Positions 3,824 through 43,078 of a stretch of 64,000 nucleotides of DNA are shown here, one piece after another. A model generated the notes under the pieces. The model had not been told where the DNA came from and made no database searches. It saw only the letters and a program-made list of their open reading frames with translations. A program made the translations under genes and the position numbers. The stretch is from a virus (taxonomy: Duplodnaviria > Caudoviricetes), in the IMG/VR virus record IMGVR_UViG_3300038828_000048, positions 1-64,000 of that record; one strand, 5' to 3'. The first letter of the stretch is position 1. Each line of letters begins with the position of its first letter.

Positions 3824-4212
3824 ATATTTAGTTTAATATTACCTTCTTCATAAGTAACTTCTTTAGTGTACTTTTTAGGAAGTTTTACTGAAAATTCAAC
3901 ATAAGATTTCTTATTATCTTTAGTACTTTTAGTTAAATAATCTATTAGTTGAGATACACTTTTTTTTATATTATAGATTAGTGAAATATTACATTCATCA
4001 CAAAGAAACTCAATCTCTCCATCTGTAAAATTAGCGAAATCATTTATAATATTAATATTATCATCTTCATCAATTACCCACAAATGATTTTTAAGTTCAG
4101 ATAATTCAAAAATAAGTTCTTTATGATTATCATCAATAATTCTATATTGATTTTTTGTTTTTTTAATATGCTTATATACAGCTTTGAATGTCTTTTTTCT
4201 ACTTAATATCAT
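3811..4212 (-). CDS. Hypothetical protein
   Basis: 133 aa ORF. Confidence 0.7.
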   Translation of the reverse strand: MILSRKKTFKAVYKHIKKTKNQYRIIDDNHKELIFELSELKNHLWVIDEDDNINIINDFANFTDGEIEFLCDECNISLIYNIKKSVSQLIDYLTKSTKDNKKSYVEFSVKLPKKYTKEVTYEEGNIKLNIYFH

Positions 4213-4220
4213 ATTTATAC

Positions 4221-4787
4221 TTATTTTAAATTGAAAAATTCCTTGATTGTTTTTGGTGTATATTTTAATCGTCGAGTATCTTTTTTAATTTTTGTAAAAA
4301 GATATTTTTGTGGAGTAAATGTTTCTTCAAAGAAAGATGGGAGTTTAATTAAATTAATATAAATTTGATACTTATCAAATAACCAAGCTTTATTTTGTTG
4401 AAATAATCTAGTCATATTATTTCTATCAAAAATACCTTTAGTTTCAACATACGATATTAATTGAATTGTATCATCGCTTTGTTTTTCTTTTTTATATAAA
4501 AAAGGACAAGTAATTTTTAGTATTGTATCATCAATATCTTGTGCAATTATCGAAATATCTTTATCGGGATTCCATACTATCTTAAAATCAGTAGTATATA
4601 TTTTTTTACCTATAACTTTTTGAGTTAAGATTTTGGTGGATTTTTTTAAAATTTTCTGATACTCCTTGTTAAATCCTTTAGTAAGCACAAAAGGTTCTGG
4701 ATTATGCTCATAGGAAAGTATCACTCCAATAGATAATAATTCCTCTAAAAAATAAGAAAAATATAATTCTTCATCTGAATCAAACAT
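4221..4787 (-). CDS. PD-(D/E)XK endonuclease (DUF1064/resolvase-like)
   Basis: FDSDEE, YTTDF and VETKG motifs; ATG at 4787. Confidence 0.7.
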   Translation of the reverse strand: MFDSDEELYFSYFLEELLSIGVILSYEHNPEPFVLTKGFNKEYQKILKKSTKILTQKVIGKKIYTTDFKIVWNPDKDISIIAQDIDDTILKITCPFLYKKEKQSDDTIQLISYVETKGIFDRNNMTRLFQQNKAWLFDKYQIYINLIKLPSFFEETFTPQKYLFTKIKKDTRRLKYTPKTIKEFFNLK

Positions 4788-7029: not shown

Positions 7030-9937
7030 TTCCAACGAATTTTAGTGAATGAATTTTATTTAATGGTTTTAATTTTATATATTTACTAAGAATTAGTTCT
7101 CGTAAATCTAATGGTTGATTAGTATTAGTACATTCTCTAATTATACCCCAATTTACTTTAATAAATCTATTTACTAATTCTAATATATATTTATATTTTT
7201 CTATACTAGATAATACTAAATCGAATTTAATACTCGCATCAAGTTCTTCAAAGAAACTAAAATAATCTTCAAATTTGTATCTATTAATAAAAGGATTTTC
7301 TTTAATTTTAATTGGGTCTAATTCAATATGATCATTATGGTTAGTATGACTATCAGTATTACAATCAAAATAAAATAAAAATTCTCTTAATAAATCATAA
7401 TATTCTACATAAATAGTTGATTTGAAAATATTTGCAAAATCCCATATTTTTTGAATAATACATGCATCAAAAAATGTAATATTTGAACGACTTATATCAA
7501 ACATATCATAATTAGAAAAATCATTAGCTTTATATATATTATAATTATGGGTTTTAAATAGTTTATAAAAAACTGCTTTTTGTAAATAATCATAAAACAG
7601 ATCCAAAATATAAATATTTTCTTTTAAAAATAAATCATCTACTTTAATTATTTTAGATCTGAACAAGTTATAAAAATTATTTTTTTCAATTTTAGTATAA
7701 TTACTAATATCACATAATAAAAAGCTATTTGTATTTTTAACTAATTGATCATCTTCTACTGGTTGTAATTGATAAATTGTATCACGATATTTACCAAACG
7801 TTCTTATAAAATTATACTTATGATCTGTTATACAATTATTTTTTTTATTTTCGTCTCTAATTATGATATAATCATGCTTATTAATTTCATCATGATTTAA
7901 AACTATACTTGAAGAAGAAAAAATAGATGAATAATCATAATAATTAGATAAAGCTAATGAAAATTCAATATCGGTTTTTTCTTTTTTTGCACTAATTGTT
8001 TTTTTTCTTTTCTCTCGTATAGCTAGAATAGATTGTTTCTTTTTTTCAATAAAACTATCAATTTCTTCTTGAATATGTTCAATAGGAACATCTGGAACAA
8101 CACCTAATTTAACTATTTCATAATATATATCTTTATATACACGAATAGCATCTTTTATATAAGTTAAATTTAAATATCTTTTTATTGTTTTATAAACAAA
8201 ATAACCAGGATATTTATGTAATCTAGAAATATAATTATTACTACCTTCCAAAATGCTACGTTGATAATCTATTATAATATTTGTTATAATGTTATCTGTA
8301 ATAAACTTCCAAGTTTTATTATCCGTAATATTCAAGTTTAATTTAATATTCGATATTTTATTTGAATCGAACACGGTATCATCTACATTATAATCATCAT
8401 ATATTTTATAATATCTTTTAGAATCATGATAACTTGTTTTTCCATATGCTAATCTTACATCAATATTTCTAAAAAGCTTATTAAAAACTCTTGAAAATTT
8501 TGATTGAGATAAATAGCTGAATTTATTATAATTCAAAAGGTAATAAATTCTTTCACTGGAACTAATTGACTTCAAATATGATATGAATGTATTGATTAGA
8601 TCATCATCATTACTTCCTTCAATCATTTCTGGACTACAAACCTTAAAATCTTCGTTAACTTCTTTAATAATACGATTTCTTATATTAAGATATTCTAATG
8701 TATTAAATGGTTCATTGTAATTAATAAGTTTTCGTGTAAGTAAAATTTTAAAATAAGAATCAGAATGTTTTACTCTAAGTATTATATTTTTATTATCATT
8801 ATTATTATTACTTTGATTATTAAAATTTAAAATAACTCCGAGTGATGAATCATAATTATCTATACAATGATGGTATTCAGCAATATTATCAATATATTCA
8901 TAATGTCTAATAATATTATTACTTATAAGATCAAATACTTGTATATATTTTTTAATAATATTATTTATAGATAACTCGGTATATTCAATATTTTCTCTAT
9001 TCAAAGTTACATTAAGATCTCCAATATTGAATTTTAAATGTACCCCTGATAAAAAGTTCATATCATATTGATAATAATCACCTATATTATTTTTCTTTAT
9101 ATATTCATTAAACTTTGGTTCAATTAAAGAATGATCTAACTTATAAGATACACAATCTAAACTAATTCTTAGCGAATCTTCATTATTTGAAGTATGATAA
9201 AAAAGATCGTGTTCATAAATTAATCTATTATTAAATTTATCTACTTTAGTTGCAAGATCTTGAAGTTTAGAAGCATATAGCATATTACTATATGACAAAG
9301 TATTTTGAAGAACGAGTGGGTTTATTTGAAAATTGAAATAGATATTTTTAAATAAATATAATTGCTGCGATACTTTTACTACAAAAGAAAATAAATCATC
9401 ATATTTTACAGAAAAATATATTTTTGTTCCATTTCTCTCCGATGTTGGAACTTCATTCAACAAACTTATCTCTGGTAAAGTAGGAGTTTTATTTAAAATA
9501 TAAGTATATTTAGTACCAGAATACTTAGTTTCTATATAAAAGAAATCAACATAACCCAGTGGTGATTTTGATCCAATACCCCAACCGCCTATAAAATCTT
9601 GACTTAATCTTTTAGTACTATCGAAATATGACATATAATGTTTCTCAATAAATTGAGGTGACATACCAATACCATCGTCTTTCACAGAGAATGTTATTTC
9701 TGAATCAATATCACAATATAAAGATATCAATATTGGATTATTTACATTATCCAATCTATTTGCATCTAAAGCATTAGATGTTAATTCTCGAATAATCGAT
9801 CCTATAAGATCAGAATATAAGTTTTTACTCACAGCAGATATCGCAAACATCATGTTGGATGCACTAATATTAGCTTGTGTAGCTTTTCCTACACCAATAC
9901 TATCAATCTCAATATTTTCTAATATTTCTACCTTCAT
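7019..9937 (-). CDS. rIIA: rIIA-like protein with N-terminal GHKL/HATPase domain
   Basis: LYSD..IRELTSNALDA, VKDDGIGMS, STKR and GGWGIGSKSP motifs. Confidence 0.8.
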   Translation of the reverse strand: MKVEILENIEIDSIGVGKATQANISASNMMFAISAVSKNLYSDLIGSIIRELTSNALDANRLDNVNNPILISLYCDIDSEITFSVKDDGIGMSPQFIEKHYMSYFDSTKRLSQDFIGGWGIGSKSPLGYVDFFYIETKYSGTKYTYILNKTPTLPEISLLNEVPTSERNGTKIYFSVKYDDLFSFVVKVSQQLYLFKNIYFNFQINPLVLQNTLSYSNMLYASKLQDLATKVDKFNNRLIYEHDLFYHTSNNEDSLRISLDCVSYKLDHSLIEPKFNEYIKKNNIGDYYQYDMNFLSGVHLKFNIGDLNVTLNRENIEYTELSINNIIKKYIQVFDLISNNIIRHYEYIDNIAEYHHCIDNYDSSLGVILNFNNQSNNNNDNKNIILRVKHSDSYFKILLTRKLINYNEPFNTLEYLNIRNRIIKEVNEDFKVCSPEMIEGSNDDDLINTFISYLKSISSSERIYYLLNYNKFSYLSQSKFSRVFNKLFRNIDVRLAYGKTSYHDSKRYYKIYDDYNVDDTVFDSNKISNIKLNLNITDNKTWKFITDNIITNIIIDYQRSILEGSNNYISRLHKYPGYFVYKTIKRYLNLTYIKDAIRVYKDIYYEIVKLGVVPDVPIEHIQEEIDSFIEKKKQSILAIREKRKKTISAKKEKTDIEFSLALSNYYDYSSIFSSSSIVLNHDEINKHDYIIIRDENKKNNCITDHKYNFIRTFGKYRDTIYQLQPVEDDQLVKNTNSFLLCDISNYTKIEKNNFYNLFRSKIIKVDDLFLKENIYILDLFYDYLQKAVFYKLFKTHNYNIYKANDFSNYDMFDISRSNITFFDACIIQKIWDFANIFKSTIYVEYYDLLREFLFYFDCNTDSHTNHNDHIELDPIKIKENPFINRYKFEDYFSFFEELDASIKFDLVLSSIEKYKYILELVNRFIKVNWGIIRECTNTNQPLDLRELILSKYIKLKPLNKIHSLKFVGNET

Positions 9938-38266: not shown

Positions 38267-38677
38267 TTAGATTGTATCATCATCATCTTGTAAAACTGGT
38301 TCTGTTGCTACCACAGGAGCACTAGAACCACTTAACCCCTTGGATACCAATCTTTTAGGAGTACCAAGCTCCTTCTCTGCACTGATTAATTCAAGCACCG
38401 AAATCTTACTAATGATTTCAGTATTCCATGCTGGAGTAGTAACTCCAGTTGTTCGATTAGTAACAGTTATTCTGTTACCATCCTTCCCCATTGCTGGGGA
38501 ATTCTTGCAAAGGTATAATGTACCTTCTACATAATTACCATTTTGGAATACAGTTCCATTGATGATGGATGAATGATATTCTCCAGCAACAACGTTACCT
38601 ACCATTGGTAAATTACCATTGGTATCTTGATCGAATGTTTCTTGGTTTCTTGGTTGTGAAAATGATGCAATGAACAT
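38267..38677 (-). CDS. Hypothetical protein, first gene of the leftward early block
   Basis: 136 aa ORF with acidic tail. Confidence 0.75.
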   Translation of the reverse strand: MFIASFSQPRNQETFDQDTNGNLPMVGNVVAGEYHSSIINGTVFQNGNYVEGTLYLCKNSPAMGKDGNRITVTNRTTGVTTPAWNTEIISKISVLELISAEKELGTPKRLVSKGLSGSSAPVVATEPVLQDDDDTI

Positions 38678-38942
38678 GATTAAATGATTTAAAAGTTATG
38701 GTACATAATCCCCAATGTACCGTGATAATTGGATTCTAAACACTAACGGGGGGATTAACCGATAGCAAAAATGTACCTGGGGGGTTGGGATTAACTAGTA
38801 CGAAAACTAATTCATACAATAATTTTTCAAAAAATAATATAGTAGTACGGGGATATCAATGAATTATTAAAATTGAATTATTGAAAATCACTTTTCCCAA
38901 AAAAAAATTAGGGTATATCACCTTTATGTTATTTTTTTTATT

Positions 38943-38950
38943 TAATTTTG
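38943..38950 (+). promoter_or_regulatory. TAnnTTTG (TAATTTTG) promoter for the candidate ncRNA
   Basis: Consensus match immediately 5' of the first helix. Confidence 0.5.
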
Positions 38951-38952
38951 TA

Positions 38953-39355
38953 TTACCGTTTACAAGTAACGCTTTTCAGCAAGTATTCTTGGGATTGAAT
39001 AAAACGGTAAAAGTGTTCAGTTAGATTCCTACACCCTAAGTTTGAAAATCGAAAGATCTGGTTAATAAGGATTTTGTAGGATGCGCTGTTTGAAAGTTGG
39101 TTATATGGGTGATTACCGCCGTGTTAAAGATAGTTTTTAACTTAGAAGTCAATACAATACTTAGAAGTTAATGTAAATCTCGGTAGGGTTCTAGAGTAAT
39201 CATTCGGAATAAAAAGTATATACACCTGTGGATGGTCCAAAAGTAATATCTATGGTGTACGCTTACAACACTTCCCTAAGTACCAACTAACGCTTTATAA
39301 GGTTAACTCGCTGTTATCAAACAAGGAAAAATTCCTGAGTTATAACCTTTTTTTT
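38953..39355 (+). ncRNA. Candidate large structured ncRNA, about 400 nt, possibly extending to 39536
   Basis: At least eight complementary helices including a crossing pair, a GAAA tetraloop and a terminal stem with T-run; no ORF. Confidence 0.55.
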
Positions 39356-39499
39356 ATTCAATGTAATTGATATGTTACATATAGTAAACATTTGTAATAA
39401 CGATGCTGGGGATGCTCCCTTTAAATAAAATAAAGAGTAAATTTTAAAATCTGATGCGTATGAAGTGATTTAATCGTTTTAATTTTAGTTAATTTGCGT

Positions 39500-39536
39500 A
39501 GAGTTCTGGGGTTAAAGATATCCCAGAACTCTTTTT
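39500..39536 (+). terminator. Intrinsic terminator, possibly bidirectional
   Basis: AGAGTTCTGGG/CCCAGAACTCT stem followed by T-run. Confidence 0.7.
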
Positions 39537-39740
39537 GTTTTATAGCTTAGTTTTAGGTTTCATAGCTTTATAAAGTCTTTTAAATTCTTCATCAATTGCT
39601 TCTCCATATATACCATGTAGGTTTACATTAACGTTGGATTTTGGAATATCAACCCATTTACCTTTTAATGCTTCTGCAAGCATAGCAAAACTGGCTACTG
39701 GATCACTACTAGCTTTTGGATTATTAACTATAGGTGAATC

Positions 39741-40619
39741 CTAATATTTACCAATCATATCTTTCATAATATCCATGCTAAAACCAGAATTAGGATGTGT
39801 AGGTGGATCTATAGTAAATTTATTATCTATATTACTTATATTATCACTATATAATTTATATTGAGAAGCTATAGCTTTAAGTTTCTTAACTTCTACTAAT
39901 GCTTTAGTATGTACCCTACTAAAATTATGATACATGTCTGTTACTAGTTTATTATAATCATTATCCTCTATCATATTCTCTATATTAATAATAGATGTTA
40001 ATCCTATTAAACATGTATCTTTATTAAATAGATATTGTACTAAAATATCTATTTGATCTAAATCAATATTAGCATACTTGTGTATTAAATCTCTAATAAC
40101 TAAATCATATTTAGTAGCTATACTATTTACTAATTTACAACTCGTATTAAAATAGCACGCTCTGAGGTTCTTTTTTAACTCTATGTTGGGAATCCCCGAA
40201 TTGATATTTGTATAATCTGTTTCCAGAAACCCTACATCTGCTGATTTATAATTCTTTAAATATGATAATAGTGCTAATATTGATGACCCTGTTCCACTAG
40301 TTATTATTGAATCTGGGGTATATTTAAGACCATTATCAGGAATATGCTCATCATTAACTAAGGAACTAAATAACTTCTTATTATAATTTCTATATCTTAT
40401 ATATCCTTCTAAAGGTAGTATTGTTTTAAAATATGGTGGTACGAACGTGGGAGTTTCTGGTGGTCCACCAACATTAGCGGAAATAGCATTTGGATAAGTA
40501 TTAAGTGTTCTTTCATCTCTTAATTTAGCACTATATTTAAATACACCATATTGACCTTTAACTCTAATAACAGATAGATATGGTTTGTATTCACTATTGT
40601 TTTTATTTAACTTACTCAT
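39741..40619 (-). CDS. Hypothetical protein, paralog 3 of a tandem family
   Basis: Shared C-terminal motif; frame stays open past the TAG to 39540. Confidence 0.75.
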   Translation of the reverse strand: MSKLNKNNSEYKPYLSVIRVKGQYGVFKYSAKLRDERTLNTYPNAISANVGGPPETPTFVPPYFKTILPLEGYIRYRNYNKKLFSSLVNDEHIPDNGLKYTPDSIITSGTGSSILALLSYLKNYKSADVGFLETDYTNINSGIPNIELKKNLRACYFNTSCKLVNSIATKYDLVIRDLIHKYANIDLDQIDILVQYLFNKDTCLIGLTSIINIENMIEDNDYNKLVTDMYHNFSRVHTKALVEVKKLKAIASQYKLYSDNISNIDNKFTIDPPTHPNSGFSMDIMKDMIGKY

Positions 40620-41353
40620 ATAAGTATTGTTTTTGATTCGTAATTAATATTTATTTGTATTTTATAATGATTTAGTTTGTTACAAAACTCAACAGTATCA
40701 TCTACTAATTCTCTATAATGATTTGGATGAATTTTCATTTCTAATTGTGTAATTAACTCATATCCTATTTTACTAGTAGTGCTTTGTTGTAAATAATTTA
40801 GCATTATATTTATATTATCGATAGAATCTCCAGTAAAGAATACTATCTTATGAATTAGATACTCTCTAAAAGCAAGTATATCAGCTTGTATATAAGTATA
40901 GTATTCATGTATTTGAGCATTAATTCCACGATTTATAGTGTCATCTAATCTTACATCTGTTTTATATTCAGGAGTATCTGGTTTATATTCTATATTATAT
41001 ATACTTATTACTTTTCTATCAAATAATACACTATCTAATTTTTGTATATATTCATTACTCATTTTATTTATCTGATTCCGAGTTGGTAAACAAAACAATA
41101 ATTGTTGAAAAACTAATAATGGTATTATAGGAATATCATATTCCCAACTTAAATATTTTAATGTTTCAAATTGTTGATTATATGATATTTTAACACTATA
41201 ATGTGCAGATGAATAAGTATAAGTATATAAATTGGTTAAAATGCTATTATTATTTTTAAAACAAAATGTATCAGGTGTGCTATTTGATTGTTTTTCTAAT
41301 TCTAAAAATTTTATAAATATATTTGCAATAATTGTTTTTGATTCTGATTTCAT
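40616..41353 (-). CDS. Hypothetical protein, paralog 2
   Basis: Shared C-terminal motif. Confidence 0.75.
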   Translation of the reverse strand: MKSESKTIIANIFIKFLELEKQSNSTPDTFCFKNNNSILTNLYTYTYSSAHYSVKISYNQQFETLKYLSWEYDIPIIPLLVFQQLLFCLPTRNQINKMSNEYIQKLDSVLFDRKVISIYNIEYKPDTPEYKTDVRLDDTINRGINAQIHEYYTYIQADILAFREYLIHKIVFFTGDSIDNINIMLNYLQQSTTSKIGYELITQLEMKIHPNHYRELVDDTVEFCNKLNHYKIQININYESKTILI

Positions 41354-41357
41354 AAAT

Positions 41358-42143
41358 TTATTTTTTTGTCATTGTAAATCCAGCAATATAATGAATTTGA
41401 TTTATAGTTGTTTTAACTAATTGAGAATATAACTCTGGTTCAACTATTTTTTCTATATTTAATAATAATGTTCTCCCTAAAGCTCTTGTATCTAGATTAT
41501 TATAATACTTTAATATATTATCTATTCCATCTGAATCATATTTATCTTTAATATTATCTTTTATTTTATCTATAGTTGTATTATGTAATAATATCATAGC
41601 ATGTATCGTAGATTCAACCAAAGTATCAAGGTTATATATCATATATCTATCTGATACAATACTAGGTGTTATATTATTCTTTATTACATCTAATCTATCA
41701 CCTCTTGGAGTATTATGCAGTATATACTCTTTTAAATTACTAATATCGACACTACTTAATATATCAATTATTTTCTTTTGAACTACTATTAAAGATTCGA
41801 TATCTGTCTCATAACCATCTTTTATATCTATAAAATTTGATGTTAGAGTAAATTTTAATATACCATTGTTTAAATTAGGAGGAGCTATATTATTATATGG
41901 TAAAAAATAAGTTATAAGATGTACATTAGTTAAATCTTTATAAGTTGGCATAAGAATATCGAATGATGCAATGAACATGTATGATTTGATGTTAAACTTA
42001 AATATCTGAAAGACTACATCATCTCTAAAATCTTTAATTATACGTTTATCTTTTGTAACTTTAATATCTTCATTATCATCTTTATCAATTAGTTTGGATT
42101 TTGGATTATAAAATATCCTTAATAATTTTGAGAGTGTTCCCAT
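41358..42143 (-). CDS. Hypothetical protein, paralog 1
   Basis: Shared C-terminal motif. Confidence 0.75.
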   Translation of the reverse strand: MGTLSKLLRIFYNPKSKLIDKDDNEDIKVTKDKRIIKDFRDDVVFQIFKFNIKSYMFIASFDILMPTYKDLTNVHLITYFLPYNNIAPPNLNNGILKFTLTSNFIDIKDGYETDIESLIVVQKKIIDILSSVDISNLKEYILHNTPRGDRLDVIKNNITPSIVSDRYMIYNLDTLVESTIHAMILLHNTTIDKIKDNIKDKYDSDGIDNILKYYNNLDTRALGRTLLLNIEKIVEPELYSQLVKTTINQIHYIAGFTMTKK

Positions 42144-42169: not shown

Positions 42170-43078
42170 TTAAATATTAATAGTTATATCCATAACTATC
42201 TCATTCATTTCATGCCTAATGTAATCAAAATCATAATTTTCTATTTCCCAGCTATCTGTAACCTCATCATACATTGAGTGCATTAATCTATTACCCATAC
42301 AAGTATATCCATATTCCTCTAGAATATAGGAATATACTCCCAATTGTATTCTATAATGGTTGTAGTTACAGTCATCAAAATGATTAATTGGATATTTCAT
42401 TTTCTGAAAAGGATTATTCATATTCATTTTTTCATTTGTTTTATGATCTCCTATCCAGAATACTATATTACCATTAAATTCTTCAACCCATAGTTGATCT
42501 ATTTGTCCTAATAACATACCAGAATATACAATTAATTCTGTGTAAAATCCTGGTTTTAAATCTTTTAAATCTACAACTAATCTTTTTAAATCTTGATTTA
42601 TAAATTCATTACATTGTATAACAGGAAGTTTATTTCCCGTAAAAGGATTGATCATAAAATCTTCTTGTAATGCATTAAATTCTTCGTTTGAATGATATTT
42701 TCCACCTTTGATTAATGAATTTTTATTTTTCTCATCCCAACTCTTTAATATATAAGATTGAATCTTCTTTACTTCATTCTCATCAGCATACATTCGTAGA
42801 TGTTTAAATAATCGATAGTCTGTTCCTATATATCCTTTCTTATATGGTTTAAAATAATCCTTTGGTTCTTTTGGTTTATTTAATAAATAATCATCTATAT
42901 GCAAAGTAGGATCTACATCAGTTTTATATAACAAAAACTCATATGCTTTATATAAACTCCAAAATACATCGTCAAATTCTTGCGAATATCGTTTCGAAAC
43001 AGAACTTGCTGAGATGTATTTGAAATTTTCATCTGGAAAATTTTTATAATATTTGTGGATTGATTCGATAAAATACAT
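42170..43078 (-). CDS. PD-(D/E)XK exonuclease (Cas4/RecB-like)
   Basis: YISASS, GGKYH, ELIV, GQIDQL, DHKTN and YRIQLGVY motifs. Confidence 0.82.
   Translation of the reverse strand: MYFIESIHKYYKNFPDENFKYISASSVSKRYSQEFDDVFWSLYKAYEFLLYKTDVDPTLHIDDYLLNKPKEPKDYFKPYKKGYIGTDYRLFKHLRMYADENEVKKIQSYILKSWDEKNKNSLIKGGKYHSNEEFNALQEDFMINPFTGNKLPVIQCNEFINQDLKRLVVDLKDLKPGFYTELIVYSGMLLGQIDQLWVEEFNGNIVFWIGDHKTNEKMNMNNPFQKMKYPINHFDDCNYNHYRIQLGVYSYILEEYGYTCMGNRLMHSMYDEVTDSWEIENYDFDYIRHEMNEIVMDITINI

Follow-up and report, generated by a model that had tools for sequence, protein, structure and literature searches.

Genomic context of the locus

The stretch of DNA analysed here (the window, 64,000 nt) is the first 64 kb of a 122-kb phage record from IMG/VR. 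As its relatives carry the crAss capsid domain, the source is assigned by sequence to the uncultured crAss-like phages, a group that is among the most abundant viruses in guts and oceans. Genes lie on the minus strand to the left of 43.1 kb and on the plus strand to the right of it. The longest ORF-free stretch in the 122-kb genome, at 38678-39539, is flanked by genes for a 136-aa and a 364-aa protein (Table 1), both on the minus strand; a plus-strand transcript of this gap is therefore antisense to its neighbours, as proposed in an earlier reading of the sequence (the original prediction). The G+C content of the gap is 31%, compared with 20-27% in other gaps and 27% in the genome as a whole, and alternative genetic codes (TAG as Q, or code 4) opened no frame in it.

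The gene on the right is split by an in-frame TAG at 39741-39743. Stop-codon recoding was ruled out, as all seven relatives checked have TGG (Trp) at this place, and the TAG is best read as a nonsense allele or an assembly variant (TGG to TAG). The region towards the exonuclease gene (39741-42143) differs in content between close relatives. In L011 the three genes after the exonuclease gene are absent, and the latter directly abuts a 47-aa C-terminal piece and the RNA gap; L012 has a short ORF at its start, immediately before the gap. By this comparison, such differences from the window represent a presence/absence polymorphism inside one phage species.

Table 1. Features of the ORF-free gap and its surroundings (positions in the window)
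Feature	Position	Strand	Remarks
136-aa (OB-fold) gene	38267-38677	-	left flank of the gap
Hypervariable block	38300-38797		136-aa gene and start of its leader
Leader hairpin	38700-38721		directly before the OB-fold start codon
G6 element	38735-38800		plus-strand G6 runs 38748-53 and 38779-84; core GTACCTGGGGGGTTGGGATTAAC 38773-95
AT-rich control region	38800-38942		common to the RNA and the divergent OB-fold gene
Repeated box GGG(G/T)ATATCA	38849-59, 38911-22		two copies in the AT-rich spacer
Promoter-like -7 box	38943-38950	+	TAATTTTG; Bacteroidetes type, TAnnTTTG; 2-5 nt upstream of the first helix
Candidate RNA gene	38951-39355	+	about 400 nt; core 39010-39296
P1, accessory 5' hairpin domain	38953-39010	+	stem 38953-61/39002-10; inner CAAG/CUUG 38963-66/38988-91
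P0, 5' strand	39010-39017	+	AAAGUGUU; pairs with 39289-96, closing the predicted three-way junction
P2 arm	39027-39081	+	P2 39027-33/39075-81; P2a 39035-39/39066-70
P2b	39046-50/39055-59	+	GAAA loop 39051-54; invariant CUGGUU 39058-63
Conserved junction	39077-39094	+	UAGGAUGC (39077-84) ... UUUGAA (39089-94)
P3 domain	39095-39288	+	closing helix 39095-101/39282-88; P4 39110-16/39196-202; variable interior
P0, 3' strand	39289-39296	+	AACGCUUU; immediately abuts the P3 3' strand
Terminator-like hairpin	39299-39349	+	T8 run 39348-55; from the fold, below terminator-scan criteria
Downstream unit	39397-39540	+	box TAATAAYGATGCTGGRGATGCTC 39397-39420; strong terminator 39500-39532 and T-run (scan)
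364-aa gene	39540-40619	-	right flank of the gap; split by in-frame TAG
Exonuclease gene	42170-43078		query for distant relatives

Homologous loci in other phages

A search with the 136-aa protein returned 12 metagenome loci (L002-L013), which belong to the same phage species and are about 99% identical. No substitution was found among them in 38798-39449; as many neighbouring stretches are equally invariant, this is uninformative on conservation of the RNA. More distant loci were collected from homologs of the exonuclease and by a profile search with the 136-aa family. Four of them match the gap by sequence or synteny: L014, with a syntenic gap of 814 nt, L023, L025 and one contig with a 731-nt gap. 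In L023, a partial contig, the RNA is 85% identical to that of the window, compared with 68% for the adjacent gene and 66% for the spacer.

A covariance model of the 5' domain (R1; 39007-39117, 17 pairs) was built from the window, L023 and L025 only. It recovered lineages that it had not seen, namely L014 (E = 9e-8), L019/L021 (E = 5e-4) and L016 (E = 0.03), which score 74-81 bits with a six-lineage model (R2). All these matches are located on the strand opposite to the exonuclease gene, as in the window; they fall inside an ORF-free gap in L014 and L016, and overlap a lineage-specific 118-aa ORF call in L019/L021. By synteny and the three-lineage model the RNA is present in six diverged lineages, all of them uncultured crAss-like phages: the window group, L023, L025, L014, L019/L021 and L016. 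It is single-copy in the genome as judged by the model, which spans the 110-nt 5' domain, and the locus is syntenic in all lineages. L024 carries a gene of the 136-aa family, and the model did not detect the RNA in the 589 nt of sequence upstream of it.

Searches of wider collections yielded no further members. The RNAs of the window, L016 and L021 had no blastn match among GenBank phages, nor had the 136-aa protein one by tblastn, and protein patterns together with two DNA motifs retrieved no true relative from IMG/VR, where ten motif matches were dismissed as chance (by eye they are coding-like and lack the GAAA hairpin). In GTDB genomes, 32 of 32 motif matches failed the covariance model. 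Since Rfam gave no match either (see below), the RNA of the window appears to constitute a new family.

Elements surrounding the fold

According to the original prediction, a promoter stands before the first helix. The -7 box is indeed there, and a TAnnTTTG box occurs at the same relative position in L014 (TATATTTG), L023 (TATCTTTG) and L016 (TATATTTG), but it is missing from two of the six lineages (L025 and L021), and TAnnTTTG, with 129 occurrences in the window for an expected 113, is a common word in this DNA and shows no enrichment. The box is thus regarded as a putative promoter. The AT-rich spacer upstream contains a repeated box in two copies, with a possible role as operators or iterons; two boxes of similar sequence (GTATCCCAA) are found in L014.

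P1, the first helix, holds in L023, where seven of nine pairs are retained with one compensatory change (C-G to U-A), and, by our reading, in L025, which has CUUC/GAAG and CAGG/CCUG at equivalent places. The domain is absent from L014, L021 and L016.

The two terminators of the original prediction were both recovered, the downstream one by the terminator scan and the upstream one as a hairpin followed by T8 in the fold. The latter (39299-39355) likely forms the 3' end of the RNA. A hairpin with a T-run is also found behind P0 in L025, L021 and L016, and in L014 the T-runs alone are clear. The downstream unit has its box and terminator in common with L025 and may supply the 3' part of a longer isoform produced by read-through; a second terminator is present in L021 and L016 as well.

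Several minor differences were noted in this region. Box TAATAAYGATGCTGGRGATGCTC opens a possible ORF of 14-17 codons in the window and L025 (MLGML... and MMLEML..., respectively). At 39475, between both terminators, the window is without 13 bases (GTTTTAAGTTTTG) that are found in all 12 close relatives. The place just downstream of the RNA, which in the other lineages holds a convergent gene, is taken in L014 by a DUF559-type endonuclease gene (9034-9555 of that contig) on the strand of the RNA, probably a mobile insertion.

A three-way junction conserved by compensatory changes

The folding energy of the window sequence was not above that of shuffled sequences (z = -1.06 on the plus strand and -1.57 on the minus strand), and the fold was assessed by comparing lineages. 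The six-lineage alignment of the 5' domain (A11, 39007-39117) was fitted to the model structure and is hence biased towards it, with half of the lineages unused in model building; in it, 97.8% of pair cells are paired, compared with about 40% in controls with slid partners. Thirteen of the 17 pairs changed on both sides, and covariation in crAss-like homologs, which the original prediction had named as its check, is accordingly found. The covariation score is 0.824; sliding the partners by 1-3 columns lowers it to 0.22 or less, and none of 500 shuffles scored as high. One P2 pair, for instance, is C-G, A-U or U-A depending on the lineage. The hairpin cap is GAAA in five of the six lineages, L016 having GAUG instead, and is closed by C-G, A-U or G-C.

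The same alignment contains 11 G-U cells and one A-C cell, and only 87.1% of pair cells are paired when it is read on the minus strand. The excess of G-U over A-C pairs indicates that the plus strand is the folded one. On this strand T-runs follow the fold in all lineages, mostly behind a hairpin. No conserved reading frame exists, stops being present in every frame except for one lineage-specific ORF in L021.

Unpaired elements are conserved too. In the P2 arm the internal loop UUUGAG/CUGGUU is invariant. At the junction, UAGGAUGC and UUUGAA are conserved in the four-lineage alignments A6 and A8; L021 and L016 retain UUUGAA, while UAGGAUGC has diverged (UAGGUGC and UAGUUGC, respectively) and, by our reading, the two blocks are further apart.

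P0 and P3 lie outside the modelled domain. P0 is formed by the strand that directly precedes P2 and the strand that directly precedes the terminator, P3 by the strand directly behind the conserved UUUGAA and the one that adjoins the P0 3' strand on its 5' side. The strands are unrelated in sequence across five lineages: in the window P0 is AAAGUGUU/AACGCUUU and P3 AGUUGGU/ACCAACU; in L025 they are AAAUAGU/ACUAUUU and AAUGAUGU/ACAUCAUU; in L014 AUCAUAAU/AUUAUGGU and UAUUAAUC/GAUUAAUA; in L021 GUUGUAGU/ACUACAAC and UUUUGAAAUA/UAUUUCAGAA (10 bp); and in L016 GAUUCAA/UUGAGUC and AGUUUGA/UCAAGCU (7 bp). The 3' strands are nevertheless always 0-2 nt apart, just before the terminator. Neither helix is significant singly, and 7-8 bp complements are frequent by chance in such sequence. 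However, an unbiased search for two helices with abutting 3' strands returned the same positions in five of five lineages, with p values from 0.0025 to 0.11 per lineage and a combined p of 1.6e-4 (Fisher). The single-sequence minimum-energy folds of L021 and L016 contain the same three-way junction. These comparisons indicate a junction closed by P0, with P2 and P3 as its arms, the helices of which are kept by compensatory changes in six lineages.

Most of the helices in the original prediction agree with this fold. Its inverted repeats are present and fully Watson-Crick in the window: 38953-61/39002-10 (P1), 39027-33/39075-81 (P2), ATC-GAAA-GAT at 39048-57, 39095-101/39282-88 (P3), 39110-16/39196-202 (P4), 39221-26/39254-59, and 39011-17/39267-73, the last having been proposed as a pseudoknot. 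Homologs confirmed P2, the GAAA hairpin and the P3 closing helix, and P4 holds with a change of U-A to U-G in L023 and, by our reading, of U-A to C-G in L025. The helix at 39221-26/39254-59 is not conserved in L023. A further helix, 39123-30/39134-41 (H5), exists in the window, but includes one G-T pair and competes with an overlapping hairpin. The pseudoknot strands can pair; however, the covarying partner of 39011-17 is the nested 39289-96, and the fold is therefore probably unknotted there.

The direct repeat of ACTTAGAAGT was also verified. The P3 interior carries a lineage-specific 18-nt duplication (39140-72), and in L023 the hairpin that competes with H5 has a loop shorter by 18 nt, which removes one copy of the direct repeat.

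Screening against known RNA classes

No Rfam 15 family matched the whole window at gathering score. Within 38600-39650, matches at E <= 10 were at chance level (at most 31 bits, compared with gathering scores of 40-102), and none was to GOLLD, ROOL, HEARO, RNase P, 6S, group I or II introns or ribozymes. The Rfam comparison suggested with the original prediction thus leaves the novelty of the RNA intact.

ARAGORN found no tRNA or tmRNA in the window or the 122-kb genome, which rules out these classes, and the same tools do detect a tmRNA in Cellulophaga phage phi14:2 (see below). Together with the missing Rfam intron match, this bears out the earlier statement that the RNA resembles neither tRNA, tmRNA nor a group I core. 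Group I and group II introns were rejected on the additional grounds that no gene is split and both flanks are non-coding. A retron, DGR or UG-RT RNA was rejected because no RVT_1 match was found in the genome (72% complete), and a DGR template because the gap and the hypervariable gene have no repeat in common. A riboswitch or other cis leader was rejected because a convergent gene comes next in the window, L025, L021 and L016.

The neighbouring putative OB-fold gene

The family of the 136-aa protein, which is named in neither Pfam nor PHROG, comprises about 70 clusters that have in common the N-terminus MFIAKF..., the motif LYLCxN and a variable acidic tail. The best structural matches of the protein's AlphaFold model (pLDDT 89) are weak (Foldseek E of at least 0.04, VIA Z of at most 4.9) and all are nucleic-acid-binding OB folds, namely SSB, the cold-shock/S1 domains of RNase R and Dis3L2, and the Rho RNA-binding domain. 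As no canonical SSB was found in the genome, the modelled protein may be the SSB of the phage. Its gene is adjacent to the RNA and divergent from it in four of the six lineages, and not adjacent in L016 and L021; a 151-aa neighbour in L016 was considered as a family member and rejected, having no detectable homology.

Among 13 genomes that are otherwise about 99% identical, the hypervariable block shows 33-51 variable sites per 100 nt, compared with 0-3 elsewhere, and the alleles of the protein are 98, 74, 67 and 58% identical. The pattern suggests an arms-race gene whose alleles are replaced through recombination.

In the OB-fold mRNA, the G6 element forms a C-rich leader. Four lineages retain it, L016 has it in looser form and L021 has a single G-run. 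In the mRNA sense the leader has no consensus fold, and the hairpin before the start codon differs in sequence between lineages.

Interpretation and alternative explanations

Based on these observations, we suggest that 38951-39355 of the plus strand encodes, as a gene of its own, a structured non-coding RNA about 400 nt long, a reading to which we give a probability of roughly 0.78. Compensatory changes in six lineages, the lack of a shared open frame and the lack of an Rfam match together agree with the undescribed phage RNA of the original prediction. The transcript would consist of an optional 5' hairpin (P1) and a 287-nt core, in which P0 would close the three-way junction between a P2 arm with a GNRA-capped hairpin and a large, variable P3 arm. 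It would be transcribed by the host RNA polymerase from the Bacteroidetes-type TAnnTTTG promoter, divergently from the small OB-fold gene and convergently with the exonuclease operon, and be ended by an intrinsic terminator, with a second one 150-190 nt further on.

As to function, we tentatively propose a stable, abundant, trans-acting RNA that might bind a protein via the invariant P2 loop and the junction, acting as a scaffold or decoy; this is conceivable, though we would not count on it. P0 and P3 would merely hold the shape, and the adjoining OB-fold protein would be a candidate partner. More specific roles seem unlikely. In one, the RNA would act in counter-defence or takeover as a decoy, trapping a host protein such as an immune sensor, a nuclease or RNA polymerase; in another, it would be the RNA subunit of a new ribonucleoprotein formed with the OB-fold protein. 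The decoy reading would make the locus an arms-race hot spot, lying as it does beside a gene whose alleles differ by 26-42% in protein. The position next to this hypervariable gene provides a testable link to replication or host defence.

An RNA gene has to be weighed against a replication-origin element, in which the transcript, or folded plus-strand DNA, primes or marks the start of phage replication. Primer RNAs of this kind have precedents in RNA II at ColE1-type origins and in the R-loop primers at T4 origins. The cumulative GC skew has its minimum between about 38 and 44 kb, and the locus lies in the replication/recombination arm, beside the exonuclease operon and the SSB-like OB-fold gene. 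The AT-rich spacer with its two repeated boxes and the two conserved G6 runs just upstream would be parts of the origin, and folded single-stranded DNA tolerates G-T pairs as well. However, genes change orientation at 43.1 kb, 4 kb away, where the skew also turns, and this can account for the turn; the G6 runs precede the RNA and belong to the leader of the gene on the other strand, and no initiator gene was identified. Moreover, the locus has features of an RNA: a hairpin with a GNRA cap, a promoter-like box next to the 5' helix, and ends made of a hairpin plus T-run. We therefore find an origin improbable, and the folded-ssDNA version, the alternative given in the original prediction, less likely than an RNA gene.

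It is very improbable that the fold is a cis-acting leader or attenuator that senses a signal, with the terminator at 39299-39355 gating read-through into 39397-39540. Two plus-strand terminators do stand in succession, and the downstream box (GATGCTGGRGATGCTC) is conserved in L025, where, by our reading, it opens a short ORF as it does in the window. This box (see TAATAAYGATGCTGGRGATGCTC in Table 1) is, however, absent from L014, L021 and L016, all of which have the RNA; no conserved co-oriented gene follows, the exception being the inserted endonuclease gene of L014, and no conserved alternative, anti-terminator pairing was found.

Still harder to sustain is a selfish or catalytic RNA, either the remains of a self-splicing intron or a novel ribozyme that cleaves itself. 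In size and in having a junction of several helices the RNA is similar to small ribozymes, but Rfam models of introns and ribozymes gave no match at E <= 10, no gene is interrupted by the locus, which has non-coding flanks on both sides, and the element is single-copy and syntenic in all lineages. Least credible of all is that no functional RNA exists and that the gap is a divergent-promoter/terminator region with chance inverted repeats in AT-rich DNA: the folding-energy z of -1.06 and the abundance of single 7-8 bp complements would fit, but not the 13 covarying pairs out of 17 in the P2 domain, the model matches in unseen lineages, the conserved architecture (combined p = 1.6e-4) or a G+C content above that of other gaps.

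Comparison with known phage RNAs

The RNA of the window shares general properties with GOLLD, ROOL and HEARO (Rfam accessions RF01998, RF03087 and RF02033), being a big, elaborately folded, phage-borne RNA that is supported by covariation and orphan in function. It differs from them in its smaller size (core of about 290 nt), in having no Rfam match at E <= 10, and in not lying beside tRNA genes, of which the genome has none. Another stand-alone, phage-encoded RNA with a three-way junction is the pRNA of phi29, a trans-acting scaffold that binds protein. The two are alike in principle only, as neither sequence nor model gave a match, interlocking loops were not identified, and the phage group of the window is an unrelated one that packages its DNA with a terminase.

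A closer parallel in setting is offered by the marine crAss-like phage phi14:2, from which two abundant, early and persistent long non-coding RNAs were reported, transcribed from the long g004-g005 and g005-g006 intergenic regions (Drobysheva et al., bioRxiv 10.1101/2020.03.07.982082). In this transcriptome, the one available, unexplained long non-coding RNAs were among the most abundant products (bioRxiv 10.1101/2020.03.07.982082). As in the window, the ORF-free gaps are about 0.7 kb long and lie beside a small gene; the RNA starts inside the gap, as that of the window is predicted to. On the other hand, neither model R1 nor R2, covering the 110-nt 5' domain, has a match anywhere in the 100-kb phi14:2 genome, and tblastn found no homolog of the neighbouring OB-fold gene there. 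Between the g004-g005 RNA and that of the window, short word resemblances (CUUACAACAC, AGGAUG) are all that was seen, and they are unproven. The locus described here adds an RNA family with covariation support; its defined architecture and invariant loops offer concrete targets for experiments such as mutagenesis, pull-downs and structure work.

The second phi14:2 RNA is of a different kind from that of the window. The role of the g005-g006 RNA was left open in the preprint (bioRxiv 10.1101/2020.03.07.982082). In our search, positions 4031-4502 of the phi14:2 genome (NC_021806) matched the Rfam tmRNA model with 46 bits (gathering score 47) and E = 1.4e-16, and ARAGORN predicted the tag peptide GSSVQKLAMVA. 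By these matches this 'long non-coding RNA' is a phage-encoded tmRNA, which the RNA of the window is not.
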